A stretch of 64,000 nucleotides of DNA. It comes from Chiloscyllium plagiosum. Its lineage: Eukaryota. The stretch lies in contig NC_057739.1 of the NCBI RefSeq assembly GCF_004010195.1, forward strand, positions 1,496,181 through 1,560,180, in the 5' to 3' direction. Below, piece by piece: positions 959 to 64,000 of this stretch (position 1 is its first letter; the number at the start of each line of letters is the position of its first letter). The position numbers were made by a program, and so were the translations under genes. The notes below the pieces were generated by a model. The model worked only from the letters and a program-made list of their open reading frames with translations. It was not told where the DNA came from and searched no databases.

Positions 959-1291
959 CGGTAAAAACAAGGACTGCAGATGCTGGAAACCAGAGTCTAG
1001 ATTAGAGTGGTGCTGGAAAAGCACAGCAGGTCAGGCAGCATCTGAGGTGCAGGAAAATCGATGTTTTGNNNNNNNNNNNNNNNNNNNNNNNNNNNNNNNN
1101 NNNNNNNNNNNNNNNNNNNNNNNNNNNNNNNNNNNNNNNNNNNNNNNNNNNNNNNNNNNNNNNNNNNNNNNNNNNNNNNNNNNNNNNNNNNNNNNNNNNN
1201 NNNNNNNNNNNNNNNNNNNNNNNNNNNNNNGGTGTCCAGTCTCCCCAATGTAGAGGAGACTGCATCAGGAGCAATGGATACAATAAATGAT
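959..1291 (-). mobile_element. Penelope-like element fragment (family A terminus plus GIY-YIG remnant), spans an assembly gap
   Basis: Minus strand of 1231-1290 translates IYCIHCS*CSLLYIGETGH (GIY-YIG motif). 12-bp TSD gctccacaaaca at 947-958 and 1292-1303. Confidence 0.75.
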
Positions 1292-1545
1292 GCTCCACAA
1301 ACATGCCCATCCTTCACCACACATGAGTGCAAGAGCAAGAGCAAGATCAAGAGCAATGCATCTGCAACAGTCTTCAGCCAAAAGTACAAAGTGGATGATC
1401 CAGATGTCCTCAGCATCATAGACACCAATTTTCAACAACTTGATTCACCCTCATGTGATATCAAGGAAACTCATAGGCTGTTGGCTCAGGGTACTGCAAA
1501 GGATATGGGCGTTGGTAACATTCTGGCAATAGTCTTCAAAGATCT

Positions 1546-1893
1546 TCATAGAATTACTACAGTGTAGAGACAGACCACTTGGCCCAACAAGTCCATACTG
1601 ACCCTCCGAAGAGTAACCCATCAAGACTCATTCCCCAAACCATTACGCTACATTTACCCCTGACTAATGCACCTAACCTACACATACCTGAGCATTAAGA
1701 GCAATTTACATGGCCAACTCACCTACCCTGCACATCTTTGGATTGTAGGAGGAAATGGGAGCACCCAGAGGAAACCCACGCAGACACAGAGAGAACGTGC
1801 AAACTCCACACAGACAGTCGCTCGAGGCTGGAATTGAGCCCAGATCTCCAGTGGTCTGAGGCAGCAGTGCTAACCACTGAGCCACCGTGCCTC
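1546..1893 (-). mobile_element. HE1-type tRNA-derived SINE
   Basis: Reverse complement begins ggcacggtggctcagtggttagcactgctgcctca (A box), followed by a B-box-like region, the core tgtggagtttgcacgttctc and a CR1/HER1-type tail. Confidence 0.85.
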
Positions 1894-2389
1894 TCATAAA
1901 CCTGTGCTCTAGAATTCGCTGCATCCCTAACCCTGCTGTTCCTATACAATTCTAACACTGGCATTTATTCAATGAAATCAAAAATTGCCAGATTTGTCTG
2001 GTCCACAATAAACAGGGCAATCCTATCAAGCCAGCTACCATCGTCCAACCTGCGCATGTATGTGGAGCATGTGCTGGGTGTGCATGTGTTTTTGTGCAAA
2101 AGAGAGCGCGTTTGTAAAGTTATATGATGGCAATCCATAAGTTTACCCTGTTGCAAGAGTCTAATTACTTTTAATACATATTAATTTTGTTAAGTATAGC
2201 AAACTTGTCTGTGCTTATTGTCATCCTGGGTTTAAAATATATGCAAACCAGGGAATTCAACACCATTTTAAAAATGTTTAAGTTTTATAATGGCTCTGGG
2301 AATAGTGGGCATCATTGCCCCAGTAATGTGTGACAAGTGTCATTCATGACTCCTCAGATACTGAAGAATGTCCATGTCCACACGCAGCA

Positions 2390-4686
2390 ATAATGTCCAG
2401 GTGCCGGCGTTGGACTGGGGTGGAAGAGATCAGAAATCACTCGACACCAACTTATAGTCCAACAGGTTTATTTGAAATCACAAGCTTTCGGAGCACTGCT
2501 TCTTCGCCAGTTAAGTGAAGAAAAACACACAGGCACAGAATTTATAGGCAGAGAGATCAAAAGGTCATACAAATAGTGTGAGTAGAGCATTAATAGACTG
2601 AATAAGAAGTCTCTTCAGGTGAGCAGAAATGTCAGATAGTGAGTAAAGTGTTAACATCTGATGGGATGACCTTTAATCAGATCAATTGAGGCAGAGAGAT
2701 AATTACAAAAAATTAAACATAAGGTGATGCTGGAGACAAACCAAATGGCTGGAATAACATGCCAAAGGTTTAACCAAAGTAACAAGTAATCCAAACTGTA
2801 CAGACTAGTTAAGGTAGAGAGACCATAACAGGCTATCAAGGTTATGGTGTCAAAACAGGATCAAATTTACATCCCAACACGCCAACAGTTTCAAACAAAA
2901 CTTCTTTACTGGACAGACCTCCAACCAACGCTGTATACCAGATACATCGACAACATTTCCTTCCTCTGCATCATGGCAAGGCATCACTGAAACGACTACA
3001 TAATAAAATGATAAGTTACATCCCACCATCAAAATTTACCATGGACTACTCTTCAAAATCAGCCTCATTTTTGGACATACGCATCTCCATCAAGGATGGA
3101 CACTCAGTGCCTCACTCTACCACAAGCCCACAGATTACCCCACAACACTGCACTTCTCTAAACACATTAAGGAAGCCATCCCCTACAGAAAAGTTCTGAG
3201 TATACACAGGATCTGTTCAGATGAGGAGGAATAAGACCAATACCTAAAGACGCTGAAAGTCTCCCACAAAAGAACAAGATACGATGCTCAACTCATTGAT
3301 CACAAGTTCCAACATGTCGGCACGGTGGCACAGTGGTTAGCACTGCTGCCTCACAGCGCCAGAGACCTGGGTTCAATTCCCGCCTCAGGCGGCTAACTGT
3401 GTGGAGTTTGCACGTTCTCCCCGTGTCTGCGTGGGTTTCCTCCAGGTGTTCCGGTTTCTTCCCACAGTCCAAAGATGTGCAGGTCAGGTGAATTGGCCAT
3501 GCTAAATTGCCCGTAGTGTTAGGCAAGGGGTAAATGTAGGGGTATGGGTGGGTTGCGCTTCGGCGGGTCGGTGTGGACTTGTTGGGCCGAAGGGCCCGTT
3601 TCCACACTGTAATGTAATCTAATCTAAATGTCACTGTCAAAAATGCAGACTAGAGAAACTATGCCATGCTCTTTGCAGCCTTCAACATATCATTGATGAG
3701 GACAAACATCTCGCCAAGATTATCCCTAGTCCTTGCCTTCAAAACAATTGCTAAACTTTAAACAGAGCATCGTTTGCAGCAAATACCCAGCCTTCAGGTG
3801 AACATCAACCATAACATCACACAACCCTGCAACAACAACCTCTGCAAGACATGTCAGATCAAGGTCATGGATGCTGCCGTCACACATGGGAATACTATCC
3901 ACCACGTACACAGCAGATACTCATGCGACTCGGCCAATGTTGTCCACCTCATAAGCTGCAGGCAAGGACCCCAAGGTATATTGGTGAGACTATGCAGATG
4001 CTATAACAACGGATAAATGGACACCACATAACCATCACCAGGCAGAAAGGCTCCCTTGTAGTCAGGGAACAATTGAGCAGTCAAGGACATTCAGCCTCTG
4101 GTCTTCGGGTAACTGCCCTCCAAGGTGGCCTTTGAGATACACAATTACACACAAAAATTGATAGTCAAGTTCCGTACTCATGGAGATGTCCTCAACTGTG
4201 ACTATAACCCTACCATACTGTTCTGCATTTGCAAAATCTTCCTTACTGTCCTGTTTTGACACCATCACCTTGATAACTTGTAATGATTTCTTTACCTCAA
4301 TTACTTTGTACAGTTTTGAGTTTGTTACTTACAACTCTTATACCTATCATATTCTTCCAGCTATCTGAGTTGTCTCTAGCACCACCATATTTTTAAACTT
4401 TTTGTAATTATCTCTCTGCCTCAATTAATTGGATTATAGATTATTCCTTCACTTGCCATTCAGCTGTGGACAATTTGCTCACACCATCTGATGCTTTTGA
4501 TCACTTACAGAGACTTATTATTCAGCCTATTGGCACTCCACTCACAAACTTTGTATGATCTTTTGATCTGTCTGCCTATAAATTCTGTGCCTATGCATTT
4601 TCTTTACTTCACCTGACAAAGGAGCAATGCTCTGAAAGCTTGTGATTTCAAATAAACCTGGTTGACTATAACCTGGTGTCGTGTGA
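2390..4686 (+). mobile_element. 5'-truncated Penelope-like retroelement with inverted pLTR
   Basis: About 2430-2860 is an inverted copy of about 4246-4686. Interior has an RT motif remnant (YTRYIDNIS, about 2933) and a Cys-rich/GIY-YIG region (PCNNNLCKTC..YSCDSANVVHLISC, ORF 3774..4016). Imperfect TSD ccacacgcagca (2378-2389) / ccacatgcaaca (4687-4698). Confidence 0.85.
3319..3627 (+). mobile_element. HE1 SINE, young full-length copy nested in the Penelope element
   Basis: A box GGTGGCACAGTGG, B box GGTTCAATTCC, (taatc)n tail, atgtc flanks at 3314-3318 and 3628-3632. Confidence 0.9.
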
Positions 4687-4890
4687 CCACATGCAACATG
4701 ATCGAGACAGTATCCATGTTTCAGATAATAAGTAGCAAATGACATTTGTGCCATGCAAATATCAGGCAATGGCCATTTTCAAGAAATGAGAACCACACCA
4801 TCTCCCCTTGGCACTACCAATATTGAGTTCCCATTAACATTCTGGGAATCACCATTGACAAGAAATTGAACCTGGCTAGCCATATAAGTA

Positions 4891-5103
4891 GCTGGAAATG
4901 TGTTGTTGGAAAAGCGCAGCAGGTCAGGCAGCATCCAGGGAACAGGAGAATCGACGTTTCGGGCATAAGCCCTTCNNNNNNNNNNNNNTTATGCCCGAAA
5001 CGTCGATTCTCCTGTTCCCTGGATGCTGCCTGACCTGCTGCGCTTTTCCAGCAACACATTTCCAGCTCTGATCTCCAGCATCTGCAGACCTCACTTTCTC
5101 CTC
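4891..5103. mobile_element. Palindromic Penelope-derived short element (family A)
   Basis: About 85-bp inverted arms around a 13-N gap. 15-bp TSD ctagccatataagta at 4876-4890 and 5104-5118. Confidence 0.85.
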
Positions 5104-5339
5104 CTAGCCATATAAGTACAGTGGCTACAAGAGCAAATCAGAAATTCTGCCAATTATTCACTTTCTGACTCCCCAAAGCCTATGCAGTATGTTCAAGTCA
5201 GGAGTGCAACTGAACATTCTCCACTGGCATGGATGAGTGCAGCTCTAACGCTCAAGAAGTTTGACACCAGCCAGGACAAAATAACCCACTAAACCAACAT
5301 CACATCCATCACTTTTAGCAACCACTCCGTCCACCTTGA

Positions 5340-8075
5340 CTGGAGAGCTTTTTGGCATCCAGGTAACCTTTTTGTGCCAGCACCTAGATAGTTCTATGAG
5401 AGATAGGGCAGTGCTAGACCTAATCCTAGTGAATTAATCAAGTGGTTGAATGTCAGTGGGCAAACATTTTGGGGACCCTGACCATATCTCTATATGTTTC
5501 AAAGTCATTCTGAAATGGGAAAAGGATAGTGCAGAAGTGTAATGTCTAAATTGGGGAAAAGTCAATTTCAATATCATTAGACAGGATCTGGCAAACAGAG
5601 ACTGGGAGCAGCAGGTCAATCTACATTTGGAAAGTAGGAGTCTTTTAAAGATAGAAGTGAGAGTTCAGTGCCAGCTAACATTAAGGACAAGGACAGTAAA
5701 TCCCTGGAAGCCTGGATATGAAGTGACATTGAGAGTTTGGTAAAGAAAATAAAGGAAGCTTTTGTTGTGGATGGGTTTGTCCCACTGAGGCAAGAAAGGG
5801 AAGGTAGGGCGAAGGAACCTTGGATGACAAGAGATGTAGAACATCAAGAAAGCTTACTAAAAGTTGAGAAAGCAGGGCTCAAGAGGTTAACAAGTTAGCC
5901 AGGAAGGAACTGAAGAATGGACTTAGAAGAACTAGAAGGGGGCATCTAAAATCCTTGGTGGATAGGATTAAGGAAAACCTTAAGGCATTCTACACTTATG
6001 TGAGGAACAAGAGGATGGCCAGAACGAGGGCAGGGCCAATCAGGGATAGTAGAGGGAACTTCTGCCTGGCATCGGAGATGGTCCTTAATGGATATTTTGC
6101 TTCGGTATTCACTAATGAGAGGGACCTTGTCATTTGTAAGGATAGTGTGAAACAGTCGGATATACTCGGACAGGTTGATGTTAAGGAGGATGTACTGAAA
6201 CTTTTGAAAAACATGAGGACAGATAAGTCTCCTGGGCCAGACAGGATATACTCAAGGTTTCTACAGTAACCAAGGGAAGAGAGCGCTACGCCTTTGGCAA
6301 TGATCATTGTACTCTCAGATGATTGGAGGATGGCAAATGTAGTTCCCTTGTTGAATAAAGGGAATAGGGATAAACCTGGGAATTATAGACTAGTTAGTCT
6401 TACGTTGGTGGTGGGTAAAGTATTGGACAGGATTCTGAGAGACTAGATTTATCATTATTTGGAAAAGCATAGTTTGATTAGAGATAGTCAACATGACTTT
6501 GTGAGGGGCAGGTCATGCCTCACAATCCTTATTGAATTATTTGAGGATGTAACAAAACACATTATTGAAGGTAGAGCAGTGGATGTGGTGTATATGGATT
6601 TTAGCAAGGTATTTGATAAGGTTCTCTATGGTAGGCTCATTCAGAAAGTAAGGAGGCATGGGATACAGGGAAATTTGGCTGTCTGGATACAGAATTGGCT
6701 GCCCATAAATGTCCAAGGGCAGTGGTAGGTGGAAAGTGTTCAGCCTGACGCTCGATGACTAGTGTAGTTCCGCAAGGATCTGTTCTGGGACCTCTGCTTT
6801 TTGTGATTTTTATAAATGACTTGGATGAGGAAGTGGAAGGGTGGGTTAGTAAGTTTGCTGATGACACAAAGGTTGGTGGAATTGTTGATAGTGTGGAGGT
6901 TCTATTGTCGGTTGCAACGAGTCATTGACAGGATGCAGAGCTGGGCTGAGAAGTGGCAGCTAGAAGTCAACCTGGAAAAGTGTGAAGTGATTCATTTTAG
7001 ATGGTCAAATTTGAATGCAGATTACAGGATTAAAGGCAGGATTCTTGGCAGTGTGGAGGAACAGAGAGATTTTGGGGTCCACATACATAGATTACTCAAA
7101 GTTGCCACCAAGTTGATAGAGTTGTTAAGATTTGTTGGGTTTCATGAGCAGGGGGACTGAATTTAAGAGTCATGAGGTTATGCTGCAGCTCTATAAAGCC
7201 CTGGTTAGACCACCCCTGAAATATTTTGTTCAGTTCTGGTTGTCTCATTATAGGAAGGATGTGGAAACTTTAGAAAGGGTGCAGAGGGGATTTAACAAGA
7301 TCCTGCCTGGACTGGAGGGCATGTCTTATGAAGAAAGATTGAGGGAGCTAGGGCTTTTCTCATTGCAGCAAAGAAGAATGAGAGATGACTTGATTGTACG
7401 AACAAGATGGTGAGGGGCACAGAATCCCTACAGTGTGCCCCTTCGGCCCAACAAGTCCACAGCAATCCTTCAAAGAGTAATCCACCCAGACCCATTCCCC
7501 TACCATATTATCCTACATTTATCCCTGACTACTGTACCTAGACTACACATCCCTGAACACTATGGGCAATTTAGCATGGCCAATTCACCCAACCTACACA
7601 TGGATCATGGGAGAAAACCGGAGTACCTGGAGGAAACTCACGCAGACACTAGGAGAATGTGCAAACTCCACACAGTTGCCTGAAGCTTGAATCGAACCCA
7701 GGTCCCTGGTGCTGTGAGGCAGCAGTGCTAACCACTGAGGCACCGTGCCACCCCATAGATAGAGTGGATAATCGGAGACCGTTTCCCAGGGAGGAAATGA
7801 CTATCATGACGGGACATAATTTTAAGGTGATCGGTGGAAGGTTTAGGGGAGATGTCAGAGTTAGGTTCTTTCGAAGTGCTGGGTGCATGAAATGCATTGC
7901 TAGCAGTAGTAATAGAGTCAGAAACATTAGGGACATTTAAGCAACTCTTGGATTGGCACATGGATGCTAGTAAAATGCAGGGCATTTAGATTAGTTTGAT
8001 CTTAGAGTAGGATAAAAGGTTGGGCCAACATCAAGAGCCGAAGGGCCTGTACTGTGCTGTATTGATCTATGTTCT
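5340..8075 (+). mobile_element. CR1/HER1 LINE, decayed ORF2 (RT) through 3' end
   Basis: ORFs 5955..6269, 6459..6728, 6816..7160 and 7132..7413 give KSPGPD, QHDFVRGRSCLT, VDVVYMDFSKVFDKV and WSPHYRKD-like motifs. KFADDTK at about 6851. Confidence 0.9.
7418..7752 (-). mobile_element. HE1 SINE inserted into the CR1 3' region
   Basis: Reverse complement starts tggcacggtgcctcagtggttagcactgctgcctcacagc with B box gggttcgattc. CR1 sequence resumes on both sides. Confidence 0.85.
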
Positions 8076-9069
8076 ATGTTTGATACAGAGCATTAAAAAC
8101 AGGAGAGGCTCCTCTGCAGTCTGTAGGGGGTGGCTTAAAAAGATTCTAATGGCAAAGAGGTGCCACAAAATATCTTTGGCAGATTGTATTAAAGAAAACG
8201 CCAAGGCATTTTGTTCATCTTTTAAGAGTAAGAGAATTACCAGAGAAAGAATTAGAGACTAAACGGGCAGTCTGCTGGTGGAGCCAGAGGAGTGGGTGAA
8301 GTCGTAAATGAATATTTGTCATCTGAATTCACAAAGACCTTATAGCTGGAGATTTCAGTTGAGTTTTTAGGGCATTTTAAGATTAATAAGGAGGGGCATT
8401 AGATGCTTTCGCAGGTTCATTTTTAAATCTGCCAACATCTCCAGTATCTCCTTGTTCCTTATACTTGGATATGTCATACCGTTCAATAAGTTCACCTCTC
8501 CTAAACTCCAATGAGTAACAAACCCAACCCATCGAGCAAACAAATCTTTCCATATCCCTTTAGTGAACCTTGTCTTGACTGCCTCCAAATCCAATACATC
8601 TTTCCCTGGATAATGGTACCAAGTGGTCTAATCCAGTACCTGGTATAGTGTCACTTAGTCTCCCAATGTTTATACTCCATTCCCCTTGAAATAAAGGCCA
8701 AATTCCATTTGCCTTCCCTAACAGCTACCGAACGTAGATGCTAGCTTTTTGTGAATCATGTACGAGGGCCCCAACTCTTTCTGTTCTGCAGTTTCTTTGT
8801 CTAGCCCAAATTAAATAATATTCAGCTGTTCTATTCCCTTTGCCAAACTGTATAATCTCATATTGCCCCAAATTACATCTTCCACATGAGGGAGTGGGCA
8901 ATAGGTCCATCGACTGTTCTTTCTTCCCCTTCCTGGCTTGCTGCACCCTCTCCACCATTCAATTTCTCTTTATAATGTGCAACCCTTCCCAACTGCATGT
9001 ATCCTGGTTCCTCACTCTCCTCTTATGTCTCCACTTTCGCTCTCTGGCCAGTTGTTCAGAACGACATAC

Positions 9070-9524: not shown

Positions 9525-10510
9525 ACCAGCATAAGTGTGAGGTGTTGCACTTTGGAAAGTCAAACCAAGGTAGGACTTGTATAGTAAATGGTAAGGGGTG
9601 TTGCAGAACAGAGGGACATGGGAGTACAAGTACATAGTTAATTGAAAGTGGCTTCACAGGTAGACTGGGTGGTGAAGAAGGTATTTAACATGATGGCCTG
9701 CATCAGTTGAAGCACTGAGTATAGGAGATGGGACATTGTGTTACAGTTGTATGAATTGTTGGTGAGGCCACACTTGCCGAATATTGTGTATAGTTTTGGT
9801 CACCTTGTTCTAGAAAAGACTTAGTTAATCTGGATTCGTTGATGGTCTGTTCGTCAAGCTGTTGCCAGACGTTTCATCCCCTTTTGAAATGACATCAACA
9901 GTGCTGTGTTGCCTCCTGTGAAGTACTGCTGTACTGTTCCACTTTGAATGTACGCGATTCTGTTTGAGTTGTTTCCGGTTGGAACCCATCAGCTCGGCGA
10001 ACAGACCAATAACAAATCCAACCAGCTCCTGACTGACAGATCTTCACAAAACCTGTAAAAAGTGCAAATAGGATGTTGCCAGGACTGGTGAGCCTAAGTT
10101 ATAGGGAGAGGTTGGCCAGGATAGGTCTTTATGCCGAAGAACGTAGGAGAATGAAGGGTGACCTTATTGAGGTTTGTAAAATCATGAGGGGCATATTTAG
10201 GTTGAATGCATATAATCTTTTGCCCAGGGATGGGAAATTGAAAACTAGAGGACATAGGTTTGTAAGGTGAGAGGGCAAAGGTTTAAGGAGGACATCTTCA
10301 CACAGAGTGTTGTGCATACATGGAATATATGTACCTGCCAGAGAGAGTGGTTGAGGCAGCACTTAAAAAACATTTGGATAGATATATGGATGGGAAAGGC
10401 TTACAGGGATAAGGACCAATTGCGGCCAAAAGACCTAGCTGACTGGGCACCATGGACCAGTTTGGGCCGAAGGGCCTGTTTCCCTGCTATATTACTCTAT
10501 GATTCAATGA
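9525..10510 (+). mobile_element. CR1 RT C-terminal/3' fragment filling most of a NOXA1-like intron
   Basis: KCEVLHFG, LVRPHL and RRMKGDLIEVCKIM motifs, with a CR1 3' tail ending about 40 bp from the exon at 10546. Confidence 0.8.
9832..10053. mobile_element. Penelope-derived short element with inverted ends (family B-related), nested in CR1
   Basis: ggattcgttgatggtctgttcgtcaagctg (9832-9861) is inverted to cagctcggcgaacagaccaataacaaatcc (about 9990-10019). Degenerate hammerhead core on the minus strand. Confidence 0.65.
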
Positions 10511-15084: not shown

Positions 15085-15254
15085 AAAATGTGTTGCTGGA
15101 AAAGCGCAGCAGGTCGGGCATAAGCCCTTCTTCAGGGAGGGCTTATGCCCGAAACGTCGATTCTCCTGTTCCTTGGATGCTGCCTGACCTGCTGCGCTTT
15201 TCCAGCAACACATTTTCAGCTCTGATCTCCAGCATCTGCAGCCCTCACTTTCTC
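15085..15254. mobile_element. Palindromic Penelope-derived short element (family A), left arm internally deleted
   Basis: Inverted arms (aaaatgtgttgctggaaaagcgcagcaggtc and gggcataagccct). 14-bp TSD tcctctcagtcttg at 15071-15084 and 15255-15268. Confidence 0.85.
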
Positions 15255-39044: not shown

Positions 39045-40205
39045 CTGGATGTGGAACTAAGGGCATTTTTGCAGTTGATGGAAAGGTCAGTGGAGTAGTG
39101 GATGGTGCTCAAGGATGTTGCAGGTTACAGAGAGACATAGATAAGTTGCAGAGCTGGGCTGAGAGATTGCAAATGGAGTTTAATGTGGAAAAGTGTGAGA
39201 TGATTCACTTTGAAAGGAACAACAGGAATACAGTGTACTAGGCTAATGGTAAGATTCTTGGTAATGTAGATGAGCAGAGAGATCTTGGTGTCCATTTGCA
39301 TAGATCCCTGAAACTTTCCCCAAGATCGATAAGGTTATTAAGAAGGCATATGGTGTATTAACTTTTATTGGTAGGGGGATTGAATTTCAGAGCCATGAGG
39401 TCATGTTGCAGCTGTACAAAATTCTGATGCGGCCGCACTTAAGAGTATTGTGTGCAGTTCTGGTCACCGCATTATAGGAAGGATGTGGAAGCTTTGGAAA
39501 TGGTTCAGAGAAGATTTACTAGGATGTTGCCTGATTTGGAGGGAAGGTCTTATAAGGAAAGGCTGAGGGGCTTGAGGCTGTTTTCGTTAGCGAGAAGGAG
39601 GTTGAGTAGTGACTTAATTGAGACATATAAGATAATTAGAGTGTTCGTAGGATGGACAGTGAGATCCTTTTTCCTCGGATGGTGATGGCTAGCATGAGGG
39701 AGCATAGCTTCAAATTGAGGGGTGATAGATATAGAGATGAGAGTGTGGTGCTGGAAAAGTGCAGCAAGTAAGGTAGCATGAGAATTGACGTTCCGAACAT
39801 AAACCCTTCATTAGGGATGAGGCTTGTGGACCAGGATCTGAGAGATAAATGGGAAGGGGGTGGGGTAAGGGGGAGAGCAGGTGAATCAACGTCTCAGGCA
39901 TGCTGCCTGACCTGCTGTGCTTTTCCAGCATCACACTCTCAACTCTGATCCAGCATCTGCAGTCCTCACTTTCTCCTAGGGTGATAGATATAGGACAGAT
40001 GTCAGAGGTAGTTTCTTTACTCAGGGAATAGTAGAGGGCATAGAATGTACTGCTGCAACAGTAGTAGACTCACCAACATTAAGGGCATTTAAATGGTCAT
40101 TGGATAAACATATGGATGAGAATGGAATAGTGTAGGTTAGATGGGCTTCAGATTGCTTCCACAGGTCAGCGCAACATCGAGGGCCGAAGGGCCTGTCTTG
40201 CATTC
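39045..40205 (+). mobile_element. CR1 RT C-terminus and 3' end
   Basis: ORF 39452..39685 (QFWSPHYRKDVEALEMVQRRFTRMLP). Confidence 0.85.
39735..39978. mobile_element. Penelope-derived short element with inverted ends (family A), older copy
   Basis: gagagtgtggtgctggaaaagtgcagca is inverted to tgctgtgcttttccagcatcacactctc. 15-bp TSD gggtgatagatatag at 39720-39734 and 39979-39993. Confidence 0.8.
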
Positions 40206-40401: not shown

Positions 40402-40834
40402 CTGTGGTTCTGTTCGCCGAGCTGGAAGTTTTTGTTGCAAACGTTTCGTCCCCTGTCTAGGTGACATCCTCAGTGTTTGGAAGGTCAGTGGAGTAGTGGA
40501 TGGTGCTCAAGGATGTTGCAGGTTACAGAGAGACATAGATAAGTTGCAGAGCTGGGCTGAGAGATTGCAAATGGAGTTTGCTTCTGTGGTGTTTCCTCCG
40601 GCATTTATAGTGGCCTGTCCCTGCCGCTTCCGGTTGTCAGTTTCAGGTGTCCGCTGTAGTGGCCGGTATATTGGGACAGCTGAAACTGACAACCGGAAGC
40701 GGCAGGGACAGGCTCCCAAGCACTGAGGATGTCACCTAGACAGGGGACAAAACGTTTGCAACGAAAACTTCCAGCTCGGCGAACAGAACCACAGCAACGA
40801 GCACCCGAGCTACAAATCTTCTCACAAACTTTGA
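40402..40834. mobile_element. Palindromic Penelope-derived element (family B) with hammerhead core
   Basis: Arms about 40403-40480 / 40716-40792 plus an inner hairpin at 40614-40712. Imperfect TSD atacctctatg / atacctcctatg. Confidence 0.85.
40437..40477 (-). ncRNA. Putative minimal type I hammerhead ribozyme (PLE-associated), core intact
   Basis: Minus strand reads ACA-CUGAGGA-U-GUCACCU-AGAC-AGGGGAC-GAAAC-GUU-UGC. Confidence 0.5.
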
Positions 40835-46439: not shown

Positions 46440-47990
46440 GATGTTTGAACTTGCGTATCAACACAGCCTTGGGACATCTTTCCCTACAACTGCAGAAGGT
46501 ATAATACTTGCCTGTTTACTTCCTCCCTCTTTAGTATCCAAAGACCCAAACACACTTTCCAGTTGAAGCAGTGGTTTACCTGCACTTCACCCAATCTGGT
46601 CAACTGCTTTCGCTGTTCAATGTGCTCTCCTTGGAGAAATGAAGTATAGACTGAATGACTGCTTCACAGAACACCTGATGATTTCTATCCACCAAAAAGA
46701 CCCCAAGTCACCATGTTGTTCCCTGGCCAACATCTCTACCCTAGGCTTGCTGCACTGCTCCATTAAAGCTCAGCACAAGCTAGAAGAACAGCACCTCGTT
46801 GTTGTGGTTCTGTTCGTCAAGCTGGGAATGTGTGTTGCAGACGTTTCGTCCCCTGTCTAGGTGGCATCCTCAGTGCTTGGGAGCCTCCTGTGAAACGCTT
46901 CTGGGATGTTTCCTCCAGCATTTATAGTGATTTGTATCTGCCGCTTCTGGTTGTCAGTTCCAGCTGTCTGCTGCAGTGGCCGGTATATTGGGTCCAGGTC
47001 AATGCGCTTATTGATTGAATCTGTGGATGAGTGCCATGCCTCTAGGAATTCCCTGGCTGTTCTGTTTGGCTTGTCCTATAATAGTAGTGTTGTCCCAGTC
47101 GAACTCATGTTGCTTGTCATCTGAGTGTGAAGGGCTTTTGCCCGAAACGTCGATTTTGCCTGTCCTCGGATGCTGCCTGAATTGCTGTGCTCTTCCAGCA
47201 CCACTGATCCAGAATCTGAATGTGTGGCTACTAAGGATAGCTAGTCATGTCGTTTCATGGCTAGTTGGTGTTCATGGATGCGGATCGTTAGCTGTCTTCC
47301 TGTTTGTCCTATGTAGTGTTTTGTGCAGTCCTTGCATGGGAGTTTGTACACTACATTGGTTTTGCTCATGCTGGGTATTGGGTCCTTTGTCCTGGTGAGT
47401 TGGTGTCAGAGAGTGGCTGTTGGTTTGTGTGCTATGAGTCCTAGTGGTCACAGTAGTCTGGCTGTCATTTTCTGCTTAGGAACTGCCTTCTGGACTTAAA
47501 TTTCAAATTCAACAATTTTAGGGCTTTGAATTCATGTCCCATGTCCTAACCCCAACCCCCTCACACATCAGGCCTTGTTAGAATATAGAATATTACAGCA
47601 CAGTACAGCCCTTTGGCCCTCAATTGCACTGATCTATGAATCCAATCTGAAGCCCATCTGACTACGCTATTCCATTTTCATCCATGTTGATCCAATGACC
47701 ATTTAAATGCCTTAAAGTTGGCAAGTCTACTCCTATTGCAGGCAGGTCAGTGTCACATGGTCTGCTATTATTCACTACCCATTGTTAGCCACTAATAGTC
47801 CCCATTCATTCACCCCAGCTGACCATTATCCACTCCTAACCGTTCCTCACGCTGCTTGGGCTCTATCTCCATCTATGATTTACTCCTTACCTCCTCCCCC
47901 CACACTATCTTACACATAAAAGAAGAATTTTTTTCCCAGCTCCCAACAGTTTTGAAGAAAGGTCACTGGACTTGAAACATTAACTTCCTA
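46440..47990 (+). mobile_element. Penelope-like GIY-YIG/3' fragment containing two nested Penelope-derived pieces
   Basis: FTCTSPNLV..LGEMKYRLNDCFTEHL (GETKRRL..RF.EH-like) and a terminal tgaagaaaggtcactggacttgaaacattaac. Nested family B piece at about 46799-47470 and family A piece at 47130-47213 (TSD atctgagtgtg / atctgaatgtg). Confidence 0.7.
46837..46876 (-). ncRNA. Putative minimal type I hammerhead ribozyme (PLE-associated), core intact
   Basis: Minus strand reads GCA-CUGAGGA-U-GCCACCU-AGAC-AGGGGAC-GAAAC-GUC-UGC: conserved core, imperfect stem II, GUC triplet, 3-bp stem I (GCA/UGC). Confidence 0.55.
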
Positions 47991-50900: not shown

Positions 50901-53900
50901 TATATCTAGCTGCATCTTGACTATACATGGTATCAACTACTTCCTGTGGTAATGAATTCCATAGGCTCACCACTCTGTGTAAAGAAATGTCTCATCTCCG
51001 GCCTAAATGGTCTATCCTGGTTCTGGATACACCCACCTTTGAGAACATCCTTCCTGAAATCTACCCGATCTAGTCCTGTTACAATTTAAAAAAAAGTCTC
51101 CATGCTATTCCTCCCTCATTTGTCTGAGCTCCAGTGAAAACAATCCTAACCTAGTCAGTCCCATCATCCCTGGAATCAGCTTGGTAAATGTTCACTGCTC
51201 TTGCTCTCAAGGGAGTGCAATATTCTTCAGTAAAGGAAAGCAAAACTGCACACAATATTCTCGGTGTGGCCTCACCAAGGCCCTCTATGACTGAAACACA
51301 TCCCTGCTCTTATATTTGAAACCTCTTGCAATGAAGGCAAACATACCATTTGTCTTCTTTACCACCTGCATGCTTACAGTATGGGAATAAATCAGTCTTT
51401 TTCTGATTGGCAACCAATGACTAGTGTGAAACTACAAGGATCAGTGCTTGGGCCCCAGCTGTACATGGTGCATTAAATGACTTGGAGGGAACCAAATGCA
51501 ATAGTTCCAAGTTTACTGATGACACAAACCAGGAGGAATTGAGAATTAAGGTAAGGAGGCCTCAAGATGGAGAAAAATTGAGTAAACAGACATTTAGCTG
51601 CATTGTACTGCATCTGCTATATGAAGTTATACACTACAGTGAAAAACAAAAAAGAAACATTATTTAAATGGTAATAAATTGGAAAGTGTGGGTATACAAA
51701 GGGATCTGGGTGTACTTGTACACCAGTCAATGAAAGTAGACAGACAGATATAGAAAACAATTAGAATGGCCTTCATAGCAGGAGAAAGAAAGTTCAACGG
51801 TAGGAATGTCTTAATACAGTTACATCAGGCCTACGTGAGATCACAGTTGGAGTATTGCATGCAGTTTTGGTTTCCCCAAGCAAAAAAAGGAGATAGTTGC
51901 GCAGAGGGTGTATAATGGATATTCAATAGGCAGAAATTTGTATGGCAGGATTGTCTAATGAGAAGAGATAGGTTTGACTGGGCCTATATTCACGAGAGTT
52001 TAGAAGGATGAGGGGGAGATCTGATAGAATGTTATACATTTCAAATATGGATGGACAGATTAGATGCTGAAGATATTTTCCTTGGTTGGGGTCTAGGTCC
52101 AGGGGACAATTTCAGGATAAGGGAGACCATTTAGGACTGAGATGAGGAAAAATGTCTTCACTCAAAAAAAACCAATAGTGAACTTGTGGCATTCTCTACC
52201 ACAGAAGCCTGTGGAGGGCAAGCCATTGACTATGTTCAAGAAAGAAATAGATTTGCTTCTAGACTTTAGAGACATCAAGGTGTACAGGGAGGAAGTACAA
52301 ACATCACAGATCATATTGGATGTTGGAGCACACCTGAAGAAGGGCCAAATGGCCTACTCCTAGTTTCTAAGATTGTTGCACTGTCAGAGAAGCAATACAG
52401 AAGGGAGACTGACATACTGAACAATACTGAGTGACTACTGTATTGTCAGAGATCCAGTACCTGCGTGTATGCATTTCTTTACATCTATGTACTTGCGCCC
52501 ATCTCAGAGGGTGCCTGTACCAGAGTTGCACTTTTATCCAGTGTCTGCAATGTGATCTTGACTGAAGTTCTGTCCTTTATTGAAGGATCATTATAGTTCC
52601 AGCAAATGAATACATGATGGTGTTCAGTTTGTCATTTAGAGAAGTTTAACTTGAAGAATTTCATAATGTAAATATGTCTGCGAAGGTGAAGCCAGTGTCT
52701 TAGGTGAGATCAAAGGTGGATTGTATTATTACTAGATGGGTTTGGAGTCAGACCTCCTGGGAGGAGGAAGGGATGATATTTAAAGGATGTAAATAAAGAT
52801 GTCACAAACATGATCATTTCCACTTATTTGCTGCCACTGGAAGTGGAATTACAAACAGAAGGACTGGTAAAGGAAAATGGAAAATAAAGAACGAGCTGCC
52901 TGGGAGGTCAAGGCAGGTTTGATCCCTAATCTGGGTGCATATGCAATTTTCTCTTGTATAGCTGAGCAATACAGAATACAGGAAGTGAATTCAGGCCAGT
53001 TACCCGATATACTGACCTTTGTCTGTACAATCACATCAGCATGAACTGTCGGTACAAATCACCATTTGCACAATTGTCCAAATCATGAATAATTTCACAC
53101 TATAACATCAAAATAATCAATAGCAGACTGTGCAATCCCACCTGAAGTCACTACAAACAGAATATGACCAAAATCACAAGCAAAACAACAGACAAATTGT
53201 CAGTCAATATCTCTGCTGAGACATCACCAGGTCAGATTATGGTATTGAACTGGCCGTCCAGGAAAAAGTTAAATATCAACACAATATTAAAAAGGTGCAG
53301 TCTCACCAATTCCTGTATAAATTGCACCAAGATATATCCTTGTTCCTGTACTCAAATACTCTCACTATGAAGGCCATCATACTGTTTGCATTCTTTACTG
53401 CCTGCTGCAACTGTTTGCACGAGGATATCCAGGTCTCGAACATTCTCTTCATACAATTTACAACCATTGAATTATTATTATTATTATTTTCTTCGTCTTC
53501 CTAGTTTATCCACATTATACTGCATTTGCCAACATACTCAGCCTAAACAAATCACACTGCAACATCACTGCATCCTCCTCACATCCTTCCATCCAACTTT
53601 GCAGATGGTACAAATTGAAATTTACATTTAGTTGCCCAGAAATTACTGCCTGCCATTCAGAAAGAGATCAATTTCAGTCTGTTTCCCACTTAACCAATTT
53701 TCTATCAATTTCAATATGTTACCCTCAATCCCATGCACCTTACACATTAATCTCTTATGTAGGACTAACTACCTACCTGGCAAAGGAGCAGTGCTCCAAA
53801 AGCTCATACTTCCAAAGAAGCCTGTTGTACTACAACCTGGTAGTGTATGAATAAAATTCTTGATAATGGACTCGTGTATTCCCTGTTACCAACATCAGAT

Positions 53901-55479: not shown

Positions 55480-55780
55480 TATTAGATTACTTACAGTGTG
55501 GAAACAGGCCCTTCGGCCCAACAAGTCCACACCGCCCCGCCGAAGCGCAACCACCCATACCCCTTACCTTACCTAAGGCTACGGGCAATTTAGCATGGCC
55601 AATTTACCTGGCCTGCACATCTTTTGGACTGTGGAGGAAACCGGAGCACCCAGAGGAAACCCACGCAGACACGGGGAGAATGTGCAAACTCCACACAGTC
55701 AGTCGCCTGAGGCGGGAATTGAACCCGGGTCTCTGGTGCTGTGAGGCAGCAGTGCTAACCAGTGTGCCACCGTGCCGCCC
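55480..55780 (-). mobile_element. HE1 SINE, near-full length
   Basis: Close reverse-complement match to the 3319-3627 copy. atagat flanks at 55474-55479 and 55785-55790. Confidence 0.9.
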
Positions 55781-56061: not shown

Positions 56062-56479
56062 TTTGAGAAGATTTGTAGCTCAGGTCGAGGATCTGGATGT
56101 AGGTTTGCTTGCTGATCTGAAAGGTTCATTTTCAGACGTTTCGTCACCATAATAGGTAACATCAGTGAGCCTCCGGATGAAGTACTGGTGGTATGGCCTA
56201 CTTTCTATATGTTTAGGTTTCCTTGGGTTGGGTGACATAATTTTTTGTCGAGACGACATTTCTGTTTCGTTTTCTCAGGGGGTGGTAAATGGGATCCAAG
56301 TCACCCTGATAAACAGAAAGTGATATGACCAACCCAAGGAAACCTAAACATATAAATAGAAAGCAGGCCACACTATCAGTGCTTCATCTAGAGGCTCACT
56401 AATGATGTTACCTCGTATGGTGACAAAACGTCCGAAAACAAACCTTCCTGCTCAGCGAGCAAACCTACATCTAGATCCT
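56062..56479. mobile_element. Palindromic Penelope-derived element (family B-related)
   Basis: About 150-bp inverted arms (56088-56235 / 56327-56479), each with a decayed hammerhead core. Confidence 0.8.
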
Positions 56480-58735
56480 GCCCTATTTATGACACAAACA
56501 TGCATTCAATCACTTCCAGCATAGTGTCTAACAAACAATGCATCCAGGAATCAACTCAAACTAACCATTTTAGATTAACTATTGAGATGACAGGGTTAAC
56601 TTTAACCTTATAACAAAAGATGCTATAATGAAATGCCATATGTTTGACAGTTGGGATTATTCTGAAACCAGGGTGTTGGTTAACTAAAACCAGCGAGAGG
56701 CAAGTTGAAGGAGGTAGGTAAGTTAGATTAAAACTGACTACAGGGAAACGAGCAGGGGCAATGGAAGCAAATGAATTGCTCTTGCAAAGAACCAGCTCAG
56801 GCTCAACAGAAAGGAAAGGCTCTTTATATTTTGTAATCATTCTGATTTCACAACTTCTTTCAGCACAAAGAACTGCCTAAATGGCACTAACTAGCAATGT
56901 CTGCTTAATCCAAAAAAAATACTACTAGCTTTCCAGGACTAAACACTACTGATCCCATTGGTGTTTGGACCCTGCTCTTCAGCCTGTATCTTAATGCCAC
57001 TAGTGATGCGCTTATTTAAAAGCTGGGTATTGTACTTAAACCGTGAAGTTTGACATTTATTTCTAAGGCCATTGAAAGCTTGCCAAATCACAGGCTCATC
57101 CCCATTGTGACTTAATATCCAGGAAAGGTGCCTCACTTGTTCTTTCACACTGGGTGGTGCTATCTGCACAATAATCAGCAGAGTGTCAGCCACAGCTTCC
57201 TCTCCTGAGGCAATTCATTTCAAACAATTCCACAGCTGAAGAGAGTTTATCATCTCAGACCTGTTACTTTACAGCTGTATAGTCAGAAGTGGTGTGGAAA
57301 AAAATACTTAGACTTCTCAAGCCAGTCCATGGGTTGGATTAAAGTTGGATTTCAGTTTGGAAAGAACAGTGTTTAAAAACAAAGGCGACAGAAATTGTGG
57401 AAGCACTTCCACAGCAACATTGAAAACCTATAGTGAAATGCCCAGTAGTTTGATTATTTAAATAAGCCAGAGTTACATGTATTTATACACAGTCCTGCCT
57501 GACACTGGTGCTGTATTTTATCCAATGCAGTTGAAGCTCAGTCAGCAGACTGCTGTGAACTGACATTGCCTGTTGTCTCATAGATTTGAATGTGAAAACA
57601 AGGACCCTGCTTTGTTAAGTTTTTTTTCTGGCTGTAAGCCTGTTCATCGTGCCACGCTTTTAGCCTCAGAGGAGTTGGATGTGGTATTGCCGGCCCCTCA
57701 TTAGCATAGCAGCTGTCGCCCAGCCCAAAGACGAGAAAGGAAAGGAGGGTAGCAGCCCAGGCAGGACATTCTGATCAGAATGAGCTGACAATGGTAGTTA
57801 CGGCAGGAGTCAGGCAATCAACTAGAGAATGATAGACACCCAGGGAGACGCAACTGAACAGAGGCTCCCTACTCCCTGGGATGGAGAAAGAGAGAGAGAA
57901 TTGCATATCCAGGAAGAAAGATGTGAAGGTTGTCATCATGGGATAGGATGAGTAGAAACAAGATATTTTCTTAGTCAACTTTTAAAAGATATATTCAAAA
58001 CTCAGAAGATGAAACATTAATCCAGGTCTCCTTGCTCAAATATAGGGACACTGCCACTGTGCCTCAAGAGCCCAAAGGAATAATGGGGGTCAAATTTTAG
58101 TCAGCTGACAAGACAACAGCCCAAAGTGGAGCCTTTCACTTTAATCAGACAATAACAATTAAAAAGATACAGACTTACTATAATGTGCAAGTGAGGTGCA
58201 GATATTTAAAATATGCTATTTAAAAAAAAACAGACCACCCAGTGAATTCAGGGCTGCAAGCTGTATCTATCCAGGCAATTCACATCACTTTCAAACAAAA
58301 GTTCTATTTTTAAATTGGGTCTCATTAGACCAAGACCATAGGAATAGTTTTCAACTTTTCAAGTAGAGAGTAACATGGACCTTCAGACAGATCCATAAAC
58401 TCTTCATTTCAATTTGACAGCTTCATCAGCTCTCTCTAAGATCAGGGTTATCAAGAAGCAAGCAGCATGGTTTTTGCAGCAACTGGTCATTTGCAACAAA
58501 GTTTAAGATGTTGACAGTAATAGGGAGAATGGAGATTGATTTGATATTGTAACAAGGACAGTGGAATGACCATCCAATATACCACATATAGGTGACAATA
58601 TTATTACAATGTGCACAAGTCCAATGTGCAATCAGGATCGCAGAGTGCAGACAAAATGGCAGTTCTAGTTTAATAGGAAAGGAAAAGGTTCAGCACTTGA
58701 GGATGGAACAGTCTTGTTGAATATATTGGCTTTAA

Positions 58736-59038
58736 GGGCGGCACGGTGGCTCAGTAGTTAACACTGCTGCCTCACAGCACCAGGGACCCAGATTCAATTC
58801 CAGCCTTGGACAACTGTCTGTGTGGAGTCTGCACATTCTCCCTGTGTCTGCATGGGTTTCCTCCCACAGTCCACAAAGATGTGCAGGATAGGTGAATTGG
58901 CCATGCTAAATTGCCCATCGTGTTAGGTGCATTAGTCAGGGATAAATGTAGGGTCGGGGAATGGGTTACTCTTCGGAGGGTCGGTGTGGACTTGTTCGGT
59001 CAAAGGGCCTGTTTCCATACTGTAGGGAATCTAACCTA
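58736..59038 (+). mobile_element. HE1 SINE
   Basis: gggcggcacggtggctcagtagttaacactgctgcctcacagc head, SINE core and CR1-type tail. Confidence 0.85.
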
Positions 59039-60449: not shown

Positions 60450-60455
60450 TTTATT
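60450..60455 (-). other. Candidate NRARP polyadenylation signal
   Basis: AATAAA on the minus strand (plus tttatt), about 325 nt downstream of the stop codon; the first such hexamer I saw after the CDS. Confidence 0.4.
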
Positions 60456-60778: not shown

Positions 60779-61120
60779 TCACCGAGCGCCGCTCGCCCCG
60801 TACTTGGCCTTGGTGATGAGGTAGAGGACGATGTCCTGGTGCCCGCCGAACGCGGCGATGTGCAGGGCGCTCCAGCCGTCGCGGTTCGCCAGGCGGATGT
60901 CGGCGCCGAACTTGACGAGCAGCTTGACGAGCTCCAGGTTGCCCGCGATCACCGACTGGTGCAGCGCCGTCTGCCCCTCGGGCCCGAACGAGTTCACATT
61001 GAAAGGGCAGTCCGCCATGTTCTGCAGCAGCGACTGCAGCTCCCGGGTGTTGCCGCGCCTCACCGCCTCCTGGAACATCCGCTGCGGGGCGGCGGCCGGG
61101 GAGAGCTCCGCCTGGCTCAT
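60779..61120 (-). CDS. NRARP: Notch-regulated ankyrin repeat protein (NRARP or NRARP paralog), single coding exon, 113 aa
   Basis: ATG at 61120 (context GGAGCTATG), TGA at 60781-60779. Protein MSQAELSPAAAPQRMFQEAVRRGNTRELQSLLQNMADCPFNVNSFGPEGQTALHQSVIAGNLELVKLLVKFGADIRLANRDGWSALHIAAFGGHQDIVLYLITKAKYGASGAR is nearly identical to vertebrate NRARP over the ankyrin repeats. Confidence 0.93.
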   Translation of the reverse strand: MSQAELSPAAAPQRMFQEAVRRGNTRELQSLLQNMADCPFNVNSFGPEGQTALHQSVIAGNLELVKLLVKFGADIRLANRDGWSALHIAAFGGHQDIVLYLITKAKYGASGAR

Positions 61121-61459
61121 AGCTCCAGCCCGGGGGGGCGTCCCGCCGGCTCCACGGCCCCCAATGCGCCGGGGGGCGGGGGTAAAGGGATCGGCTGCCG
61201 ATCCTGGGGCTCCCTCGCTCTGATTCCCGGAGCGCTCTCTCTCTCCCTCTCTCTGCGGCGCCGGCTGCCTCCGAGAGCCGCTCCCGGCGGTGTCCGCCCC
61301 CACCCCCCCCTTCTCCTCTCCGAGGCCCGGGCTCGCTCTCTCTCTCGGTGGCTCCCCGCTTCCTGTCCGAGGCCGGCGCTCTCTGTGTCGGGGGGGGGGG
61401 GGGGGGGGTGAGGGGGGGCCTGCTCGCTCTCAGTCTCCGCTCCCTCTCCCGGCCTCGCG

Positions 61460-61494
<35 letters not shown>

Positions 61495-61681
61495 CAGGCC
61501 CCGCTCGAGCGGGTGGCCGGCCGGGCGCGCTCGCGCTCTCCCTCCGAGTTCAAACCCTACTTTCCGTTACCAGGCTCTGGCCGCCCCCTGCCGCCGATGG
61601 AGCTTTTGACGGGCGCGCGGGAGATTACCATGACAATGGAACGCTGGGCGCCTCGGGATTCCACAGTGCAGGCGAATCACA

Positions 61682-61780
61682 CCCCGCCGCCCATCCCCCC
61701 CCTCGCCGCTGCACTCTGATTGGCCGAGGACCCACGTGGTGCATGTACGGTCCTTGTTTTGCAATGACAGGTGGGCGGTG
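61682..61780 (-). promoter_or_regulatory. Candidate NRARP proximal promoter elements (GC boxes, CCAAT box, E-box)
   Basis: CCAAT on the minus strand (plus attgg 61719-61723), CACGTG at 61733-61738, GC-box-like ccccgcc at about 61682 and gggcgg at about 61773. Confidence 0.5.
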
Positions 61781-61808
61781 CCTGAGTTAATTCATTAAAA
61801 TTCTGGAG

Positions 61809-61839
61809 CGTGGGAACCAAGAGAGCAGATCTTCCCAGA
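61809..61839. promoter_or_regulatory. CSL/RBPJ site with possible head-to-head partner (sequence-paired site)
   Basis: Perfect CGTGGGAA at 61809-61816, a 15-nt spacer, then TTCCCAGA at 61832-61839 (one mismatch to TTCCCACR). Lies upstream of a known Notch target gene. Confidence 0.6.
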
Positions 61840-61844
61840 GAGAA

Positions 61845-62070
61845 ATACACACAGATACTCAGATCAAAACACAGATATTCAGATAGTTATTCAGATAAAA
61901 ACGGATATTCGAATAAAAATAGAAATATTTAGATATAGGTATATTCACAAAGGTTCTAATCCACTGATAATCGGACACACATAGAGAAAGTTGTCACACA
62001 ATTCAGATAGTGACTGGCAGCTGGACACACAATTCAGATCGACACATGAAAATATATAAATATTCAGATT
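61845..62070. repeat. Degenerate short-period tandem repeat (attcagata-like) at the edge of the NRARP promoter
   Basis: Repeated cagatattcagata / tattcagataa / gatattcgaata words. Confidence 0.55.
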
Positions 62071-64000
62071 AGAAAGAAATAGTTGGAGACCATTCATCCC
62101 CTTGAACTTGCTCTATCATTCTGTATAATCATGTTTGATCTTCGGCTTCAATTCCACTTAACCACTGACTCTCCATGTCCCTCGATTCCCTTAGAGACCA
62201 AACATCTGTCAATCCCAGCCTTGAATGAAAGTAACAGTGGAGAGGATATACTCTACCCTCTCTGGTAGAGAATTTCAAAGGCTCATAATTTTTTCTTCAT
62301 CTAAATCTTAAGCAATCAGGCCCTTATCATGAGACAGTGCTCCACCTACCAACACATGCATACCAGAGAAATGATGTGGACCATGGCATACTCTTATAGA
62401 ATAAGAAAAAGAAACAGGCGTAGGCCATTCAGCCCCTCAAGCCTGATTACCATTCAATGAGATCATGTCTAAGCCCACATTCCTCATATCAATTTGCCTG
62501 TCCTTTCTCCATAATGCTTGATTCCCCAACTGAAGAATTTATCTATCTCAGCCTTTGATATACACAGAGACTCTGTCCCTCACCATTCTCTGTGGCAAGG
62601 AATTCCAAAGACTCTCAACCCTCTTGGAGAAGAAATTCTTCCTCATCTTAGTCTTAAATTGGCATCCCTTAAATCTGACATTTACGCTCCCTCATCCTAA
62701 ACTCTTTTATAAGGGGAAACATCTGCGCAGCAAAGACCCTGTCAAGCCCCTTAAGAACAACTCCCATGAACAGTCCTAACCTGTTCAGCCTTTGCTCGTA
62801 AGACAATCCCTCCGCACCAGGGATTATTCTAGTGAACACTCTTTGAACTGCTTCCAATGATATCTTTCGTTAAAGGGGACTAAAACTGCTCACAGTACTC
62901 CAGATGTAGTTTCACCAACATGCTGTACAGTTGCAGTAAAACTTGGTTTTCTTGTAATCCATATCTGTTAAATTAAGGGCCAACATTCCGTTAGCCTTCC
63001 TGATTACCTGCTACACCTGTGTGTTAGCTTTCTGTGCTTCCTGTTAACTCCAGAAAATGTGTACCCTAATTTACTTAAACTCATTATAAGCCATTTGAGG
63101 GATCAGTTATGTGCACTTTGCTATACTGCTTTCAATGCAAGTTTAGTCTTCTTTAAATACAGAGAACAAAACTGTACATGCTATTGCACATGCAATCTCA
63201 CCAAAGTACTGCACAATGTTAGGAAGATTTCCTCCAACTCCTTTGCACAAAAAGCCATAGGTTTTCCTAGTTGCTTGCTATATCTGCACACTAACTTTAT
63301 GTACAAAGTTAAAATCACACAACACCAAGTTATAGTCCAACAGGTTTAATTGGGAGTACACTAGCTTTTGGAGCATCGCTCCTTCATCAGGTGATAGTGG
63401 AGGGCTCAATCCTGTTAGGATTGAGCCCTCCACTATCACCTGATGAAGGAGCGTGCACCCAATTAAACCTGTTGGACTATAACCTAGTGTTGTGTGATTT
63501 TTAACTTTGTACACTCCAGTCCAACACCGGCATCTCCAAATCATAACTTTATGTAGCCTGGGTACATGCATATTCACATCTCTCTGAACATCAACAATTT
63601 TTCTCCAAAAATGTAATTTTATTTATAAATGTTTCAGGACAGCAGAATTTTAAGAATCTCAACTTGAATAGAACTTGCAAAAAAAGTCAATGTGTACAGT
63701 CTTAACAGTCTTCATGTTTAGGAAATAGATACCACATTAGGGATGCAGCCTGAGTGCAAAATCTTTCAAATTCTAAATACTGCAATCATTATAAAGTTCT
63801 CCACAGAACATGCTTCATTCTGAGGTGCCTCAATACATTTTCAACATTCTTGATTTACAAATTACATGGTGTGAAGCACAAGCCTACTACGTGGAACCTT
63901 ATCAAAGGCCTTACTGAAATCCATATTTACTATGTCTATCGCCTTGCCCTCGTCAACCTTGCAGGTCACTCCATCAAAGAACTCAAACAAATTTGTGAGG
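62070..64000 (-). mobile_element. CR1 fragments (minus strand) upstream of NRARP
   Basis: ORF 62669..62857 (MEAVQRVFTRIIPG). A MDFSKAFDKVP remnant lies at about 63890-63925. Confidence 0.75.
63304..63543. mobile_element. Palindromic Penelope-derived short element (family C, same family as the 2390-4686 termini)
   Basis: Perfect 37-bp inner inverted repeat cgctccttcatcaggtgatagtggagggctcaatcct-gtt-aggattgagccctccactatcacctgatgaaggagcg plus outer arms. 12-bp TSD taactttatgta at 63292-63303 and 63544-63555. Confidence 0.88.

Follow-up and report, generated by a model that had tools for sequence, protein, structure and literature searches.

A 64,000-nucleotide (nt) stretch of the genome of the shark Chiloscyllium plagiosum (contig NC_057739.1, positions 1,496,181 to 1,560,180, forward strand; here called the window) carries short insertions with inverted arms and hammerhead ribozyme-like cores, and raises the question of whether such repeats move as self-cleaving hairpin RNAs of their own or are made by a larger element. 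An initial annotation of the window had counted ten of these insertions, had placed them in three or more families derived from Penelope-like elements (PLEs), and had read them as a retrozyme-like system of non-autonomous hairpin RNAs mobilised as units. The ten insertions are all present, either exactly where they were annotated or a few bases off, and BLAST comparison within the window gives three sequence groups (A, B, and C). The origin from PLEs is borne out as well, the arms being terminal repeats that are continuous with coding copies. It is probable, in our judgement, that the repeats are the termini of endonuclease-bearing PLEs and that each palindrome was made once, at insertion, by the head-to-head joining of two complementary DNAs (cDNAs), both copied from the front of an RNA that was uncut and likely capped.

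Centres and outer ends of the palindromes

End positions were examined in an unbiased sample of 933,453 bases, consisting of the window and 92 ten-kb stretches on four contigs, with arm positions counted from the C of CUGA. The sample holds 213 family-A arms (22.8 per 100 kb), of which 95 young, de-duplicated arms were used for end positions. The outer ends occupy two fixed positions ~35–40 nt apart: among the young family-A arms, the outer end coincides with the end of the tail in 39 of 95, and lies 28–47 nt before it in 46 of 95. Exactly one arm bears the tail in 44 of the 48 close palindromes of family A and in 13 of the 14 of family C, and target-site duplications, mostly of 12–15 nt, flank 24 and 8 of them, respectively. 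Element sequence continues beyond the tail in one unbiased tail-bearing arm (L008) of ~99, which was matched using the near full-length copy L246; an all-against-all comparison beyond the tail gave no informative pairs and missed L008.

The palindrome centres are all different in family A (48 distinct centres in 48 palindromes) and nearly so in family C (13 in 14), a copy-specific breakpoint being what the initial annotation had itself named as speaking against hairpin units. Some centres recur genome-wide, the commonest one examined in 725 exact copies. Among the first 30 of these listed, 15 have the tail on the left arm, 12 have it on the right, and 3 lack it on both; several subfamilies are spanned; arm differences are 0.037 within an element versus 0.053–0.065 between elements; and arm-asymmetric variants seen at least three times all fall at CpG sites. 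Because the tail stands on either arm, several subfamilies are involved, and the arms are alike within an element, this centre has been re-formed repeatedly and independently, likely through a 3-nt inverted microhomology. The marks of a master copy (a shared internal junction, fixed polarity, and monophyly) were looked for and not found.

Inner ends, extra G, and TATA box

The arms of families A and C pile up just upstream of the hammerhead core. The inner ends of young family-A arms lie at −10 to −3 in 29 of 95 and at −2 to +10 in 25 of 95, and only one of the 95, like one of 25 young family-C arms, starts within 3 nt of the ribozyme cut. In arms whose match to the template ends at −4 (family A) or −8 (family C), the preceding base is mostly G. 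For family C, a non-templated G stood there in 73 of the 100 rows listed first among 1,029 matches (a count that keeps 16 T rows, ~11 of which are read-through variants), versus 21 of the first 100 listed of 681 at a control position one base upstream (Fisher p = 1e-13). For family A, it was found in 57 of the first 100 listed of 12,887 matches, and in 21 of the 46 (p = 0.007 against 28%) left after the removal of 54 inverted-arm, read-through, or duplicate rows; these letters were counted by hand. In addition, each of 13 family-C read-through copies selected by eye has TATAAA at −36 to −40, which places it ~30 nt above the edge where the G stands. The m7G cap is reported to be copied by reverse transcriptases into an additional G (PMC4038843, in the portion available, with reference to Gilbert 2005 and Volloch 1995), and we infer for families A and C a transcript with a capped start just before the hammerhead that is copied uncut. 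A splice-acceptor origin of the extra G was rejected, the template showing C at that position, not AG.

Proposed insertion by two primed cDNAs

The relative reach of the two arms distinguishes one cDNA from two. In 34 palindromes of families A and C, the tail-less arm extends further 5′ by more than 3 nt, versus 13 in which the tail arm does so (p = 0.003); the arms end within 3 nt of each other in another 10, and in the single family-B element the tail arm reaches further. A single folded-back cDNA cannot give this excess, since its tail arm must reach as far. At the best subfamily-diagnostic site, with motif-selected loci included, the arms agree in 54 of 55 cases versus 28 expected, and one locus (L014) has arms that disagree at two diagnostic sites; both arms would therefore usually derive from one RNA or one source locus. 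In the available text on the Poseidon element of Anolis carolinensis in vitro (Frangieh et al. 2024, PMC11167929), cutting and extension take place on both target strands, the tail is bounded by two internal start sites, uncut RNA is the main template, and RNA past the tail is required. Two independently primed cDNAs fit the tail-less excess as well as this extension of both strands from two sites.

In the proposed route, the terminal repeat would promote an RNA polymerase II transcript starting 4 nt (family A) or 8 nt (family C) before the core, and the element protein would nick both target strands 12–15 nt apart. Each nick would prime reverse transcription at the tail end or ~37 nt before it, and both cDNAs would run 90–130 nt to, or towards, the 5′ end of the RNA, sometimes copying the cap as an extra base. 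The two 3′ ends would then be joined as blunt ends, at inverted microhomologies a few bases long, or via filler DNA. Read-through RNA would give rise in the same way to longer and coding copies. The stubs are likely dead ends, since they are without the RNA beyond the tail that the Anolis element needs, and the hammerhead would be present in them because of its location at the transcript start.

Several observations weigh against this proposal. As many as 117 of the 213 family-A arms stand outside close palindromes, so that the joining of twins is not obligatory, and the tail arm is the further-reaching one in 13 of 47 palindromes, as a fold-back could produce. Part of the family-A excess of G is templated by the inverted arm, and no canonical TATA box was found in family A. 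Among the few unbiased family-C arms, −7 is the most frequent start (3 arms) and −8 is not represented; the four family-C arms that do start at −8, each following a G, belong to loci selected by motif. Family B is without the pile-up (5 of 9 young arms run more than 40 nt upstream, and none start at −10 to −3), and a natural inverted repeat forms the centre of its perfect palindromes (L174–L176), which fold-back fits equally well. Finally, in ~2% of one polyA single-cell library, a kind of data poorly suited to capped starts or circles, read starts piled up neither at the proposed start nor at the cut site. The 1,067 reads on the family-A terminus come from both strands, and 97% of them run into unrelated sequence, which fits passive inclusion in host transcripts and is neutral on the capped start.

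Alternative explanations

Self-priming by fold-back has been proposed for rotifer Penelopes (PMC3846280, available portion): a single tail-primed cDNA would prime itself on a short inverted repeat and copy itself into the second arm. Arms that nearly always share a subfamily, the natural inverted repeat at the centre of the family-B palindromes, and an inner hairpin inside the insertion at 40402–40834 are what such a process would leave. It needs a tail arm reaching at least as far 5′, which is reversed in 34 of 47 palindromes; by itself it gives no account of a fixed stop in the second arm that matches the second in vitro start site; and one family-C element (C2:44328405–44328447) bears the extra G on both arms. 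We consider fold-back unlikely as the general origin, and it may account for a minority, notably the family-B centres. Alternatively, the arms could be independent PLE products whose inner edge reflects a stall of the reverse transcriptase at the hammerhead fold, or a G carried by a few source copies, and not a capped start. The scatter of inner ends from −10 to +10 across the core, the junction letters that inverted-arm microhomology explains, and the lack of RNA starts at the proposed site in the polyA reads are in its favour. Against it, a stalled enzyme would be expected to stop 3′ of a structure and not immediately beyond the 5′ edge. The excess of G, moreover, is limited to one position, is preceded by a varying letter, is found in two unrelated families and several family-A loop variants, and lies 30 nt below a TATA box. 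This explanation appears to us slightly harder still to credit.

The retrozyme-like system draws on the narrow size range of the repeats (many copies of 155–250 bp), the presence of some centres at hundreds of loci, and the very large number of intact cores. Against it stand the unique centres, the polyphyly of the recurrent centre with its tail on either side, the continuation past the tail of only one unbiased tail-bearing arm (L008) of ~99, and the opposite orientation of the two cores, which are predicted to be paired. Head-to-tail arrays were absent from the unbiased sample: two same-strand neighbours among the 213 family-A arms were both something other than a unit repeat, and families B and C had none. 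The arm ends ignore the ribozyme cut, as described above. The polyA reads likewise contain no head-to-tail or circle-type joints and no piles of ends, a weak test in such a library. Altogether, a retrozyme-like system is not supported, and we regard it as very improbable. A DNA transposon of the miniature inverted-repeat type was ruled out by the asymmetric arms, the continuity with PLE open reading frames (ORFs), and target duplications that vary in length between 12 and 15 nt. Target duplications and arm-to-arm mutations also speak against an assembly artefact, though long palindromes are often gapped.

Identity of the parent elements

The near full-length family-A copy L246 is arranged as terminal repeat, reverse transcriptase (RT), thumb, CX4CxxC linker, GIY-YIG, and terminal repeat. 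Its terminal repeats are direct and 3,383 nt apart; those of the window insertion at 2390–4686 are inverted. The families thus combine RT and C-terminal GIY-YIG in a single ORF with terminal repeats, a tail at one end, and a target duplication, as endonuclease-bearing PLEs do. Pfam searches of natural frames detected GIY-YIG in three of five, with one match exceeding the curated cut-off, and RVT_1 weakly in a fourth; significant matches were absent from L051 and two L246 frames. Families A and C have a CX2-5CxxC linker before GIY-YIG (CHRRNCKTC in L095 and L081, CNNNLCKTC in the window), and family B is without it (window 47219–47470, minus strand, and L086). A cysteine linker marks Neptune and Nematis PLEs and is missing from Penelope and Poseidon, according to the available text of PMC8557442. 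With clade names taken from the linker alone, the cores of A and C would be the termini of Neptune-type PLEs, and that of B of a Poseidon-type PLE.

Copy sizes form a continuum from ~80-bp stubs to kilobase coding inserts. A first look at the family-A coding piece gave 129,784 candidates genome-wide, 150 of which were scored. The loci L051–L058, picked as full-length by motif spacing, are mostly separate insertions or gapped palindromes. At L053 and L055 (C1), inverted family-A arms stand 3.6–3.8 kb apart around long stretches of unread sequence; palindromic copies of full length may be under-assembled. The first frame of L246 (L246:2425–5892) is open from the hammerhead for 330 codons, with a long Thr/Ala/Pro-rich stretch before RT. 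In family B (L189/L190), the ORF crosses the terminal repeat and stops inside the stem II loop region of the hammerhead; this family also carries TATAAA near −53 and, near −28 to −19, a natural palindrome.

Hammerhead-like cores

The composite cores drawn for the three families in the initial annotation exist as such. Exact motif searches of the 3.56-Gb genome returned 29,143 matches for family A, 10,995 for family B, and 16,631 for a shorter 17-mer of family C, with none for any of the reversed motifs used as controls. The minimal hammerhead anatomy, with an extra nucleotide after CUGANGA and a palindromic remnant of stem III, also stands. A strict minimal-hammerhead descriptor matched 52 times in the 933,453 bases versus none in five resampled controls, and the stem sequences of the matches differ among families with the pairing kept. 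The cores share with PLE minimal hammerheads the conserved core, the extra nucleotide after position 9, G10.1–C11.1, and a palindromic 15.2–16.2. Further variants at L006, L063, and L067 (stem III remnant AU/AU, other stem II sequences) may, from their sequences, point to PLE families beyond the three described.

Within the window, the strict descriptor matched none of the family cores, no hammerhead family was matched in an Rfam scan (E ≤ 10), and CTGANGA..GAAA as a bare pattern was without enrichment (6 versus 7.4 expected). A complete core was recognised by eye in 2 of 18 window stretches, both of them family-B arms (46799 and the left arm of 40402) in which stem II has a single mismatch; most of the cores are damaged or partial. 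Three window palindromes, when folded, each formed a single long duplex burying the core (z −10.6 to −22.6), and a transcribed palindrome is accordingly predicted to bury its hammerhead in this way.

Insertions in the window

Inverted arms, annotated for most of the insertions, are present in eight of the ten (4891, 15085, 39735, 40402, 56062, 63304, 9832, and 2390–4686), and only one arm is readable at 959–1291 and 46799–47470. The inverted arms are 79 nt long and 99% alike at 4891, 89 nt and 93% at 40402, 34 nt and 82% at 9832, and 205 nt and 80% at 2390–4686. Group A comprises 959, 4891, 15085, 39735, and a nested stub at 47130; group B, with its relatives, 9832, 40402, 46799, and 56062; and group C, 2390, 63304, and 53775. 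Target-site duplications of 12–15 nt, which the initial annotation did not include, flank 959, 4891, 15085, 39735, and 63304, and degenerate ones flank 2390 and the stub at 47130. A scripted search found none at 9832, 40402, 46799, 56062, and 53775; an 11/12-nt duplication with one indel at 40402 was seen by eye only.

Among the family-A (Neptune-type) insertions, that at 959..1288 (minus strand) has the tail-side terminal repeat on the left, an interior of N, and a GIY-YIG coding piece on the right (minus strand, peptide IIYCIHCS..LLYIGETG); its 15-nt duplication (944–958 and 1289–1303) places the right end at 1288 and not at 1291 as annotated. The short palindrome at 4891..5103 (plus) consists of a tail-less inverted arm (reference +5 to +91) and a direct arm to the tail end (+125), with an unread centre (N) and a perfect 15-nt duplication. 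That at 15085..15254 (plus) has a partial core in each arm, a 38-nt tail on the right, and a perfect 14-nt duplication. The older palindrome at 39735..39978 (plus) has a tail-less inverted arm reaching ~70 nt upstream of the core, a tail arm from +46, and a perfect 15-nt duplication. The solo stub at 47130..47218 (plus) is nested in a family-B copy and, being inserted into it with an 11-nt duplication of its own (one mismatch), is younger than its host.

The host, at 46799..47470 (minus), is a tail-less family-B arm that passes directly into the GIY-YIG end of an ORF without a Cys linker, and has a complete hammerhead-like core at ~46838–46873. The complex family-B (Poseidon-type) palindrome at 40402..40834 (plus) is composed of an inverted arm, a 99-nt filler (40481..40579, plus), an inner hairpin, and a direct arm with the tail. 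The filler is identical to 39083–39181 of the window, a piece of a repeat resembling a long interspersed element 1.3 kb upstream, other sampled copies of which are at most 87% alike; it was thus likely templated by nearby DNA during the insertion, as a one-off event. A long palindrome of a family-B relative at 56062..56479 (minus) has its tail on the left and both cores damaged, and an old, diverged relative (Poseidon-type terminus) at 9832..10053 (plus) has short inverted arms and a decayed core.

The long family-C (Neptune-type) insertion at 2390..4686 (plus) has an inverted tail-bearing arm (2390–2860) and a tail-less direct arm to 4686, between which are decayed RT/thumb, a CX4CxxC linker, and GIY-YIG remnants; its degenerate duplication is 12 nt. 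The short family-C palindrome at 63304..63543 (plus) is folded at least ~21 nt upstream of the core, has a tail arm with an internal deletion, and is flanked by a perfect 12-nt duplication. A decayed solo arm at 53775..53850 (plus) is an addition to the annotated set. The family-C ORF at 2390..4686 is broken by a tRNA-like repeat of the short interspersed element (SINE) type at ~3318–3627, with related copies at 1709–1891, 55567–55777, and 58731–58863; the repeat is probably of the shark HE1/V-SINE kind.

Relation to known elements

The architecture and the ribozyme type have been published before, and what appears new, judging from sequence, is shark-type members of known PLE kinds. Insertions of the endonuclease-bearing Pen2a_Av of Adineta vaga, as given in the available parts of PMC3846280 and PMC8557442, have the same terminal repeat, GIY-YIG ORF, and target duplication, and the same plan of an adjacent inverted 5′-truncated copy ~37 nt shorter with a 30–40 nt tail at one end. 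A tail with an inverted arm is therefore the published footprint of a PLE and not evidence of a separate retrozyme-like class. Unlike the rotifer elements, the copies here are mostly non-coding stubs of ~80–280 bp at very high density, the inner ends of families A and C accumulate at a single edge marked by an additional G, and the duplications measure 12–15 nt versus 8–10 in the rotifer examples (PMC3846280). In the accessible text on the Anolis element (PMC11167929), the inverted arm is not derived from two primed cDNAs, and run-off at a cap is not reported. An internal TATA-less promoter has been mapped in Drosophila Penelope (PMC2377424, available portion).

The type-I minimal hammerheads of metazoan PLEs (Cervera and de la Pena 2014, PMC4209133), as far as that article was available, share the CUGANGA core, the extra nucleotide, the G–C pair closing stem II, and the palindromic residue replacing helix III; they are mostly dispersed single motifs, with pairs 100–700 bp apart on opposite strands in Schistosoma. 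Unlike that set, stem II here has 4–6 bp and stem I 3–4 bp, and the copy numbers exceed the 4,000–9,000 reported for coelacanth and Xenopus; no shark is named in the same portion. Metazoan retrozymes (Cervera and de la Pena 2020, PMC7229834, in the text available) have the same type-I hammerhead and are non-coding and of 170–400 nt. They form head-to-tail tandem repeats processed by the ribozyme to linear and circular monomers, whereas the repeats here are single head-to-head palindromes or solo arms. In the accessible text of PMC6155905, "shark" occurs only as a shape. No report was found on shark PLE hammerheads, PLE twin priming, or PLE cap copying in a search outside whose scope lay subscription journals, Repbase, and supplements, any of which may already describe these families.

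Significance

The origin of the tandem and inverted structures and of the tail of PLEs was called unresolved in PMC8557442 (available portion). The junctions described here provide an exact, testable model of PLE insertion, with two primed products per target, run-off at the cap plus one base, and head-to-head joining; the architecture being already known, this is a mechanistic clue and not a new class of element. We lean, by a small measure, towards a more general statement, namely that hundreds of thousands of repeats in this genome are PLE insertion footprints in which a dimeric RT–endonuclease primed both target strands at two fixed RNA sites, copied through the cap, and joined the cDNAs. 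If this is true, the inverted repeat and the tail of all PLEs would be explained in one step, and the hammerhead would lie at the very start of the mRNA, where its cutting would remove the cap and not define the copied unit. The copies described here also caution that very large counts of genomic hammerheads in such genomes would represent mostly dead stubs, not working ribozymes or retrozymes.

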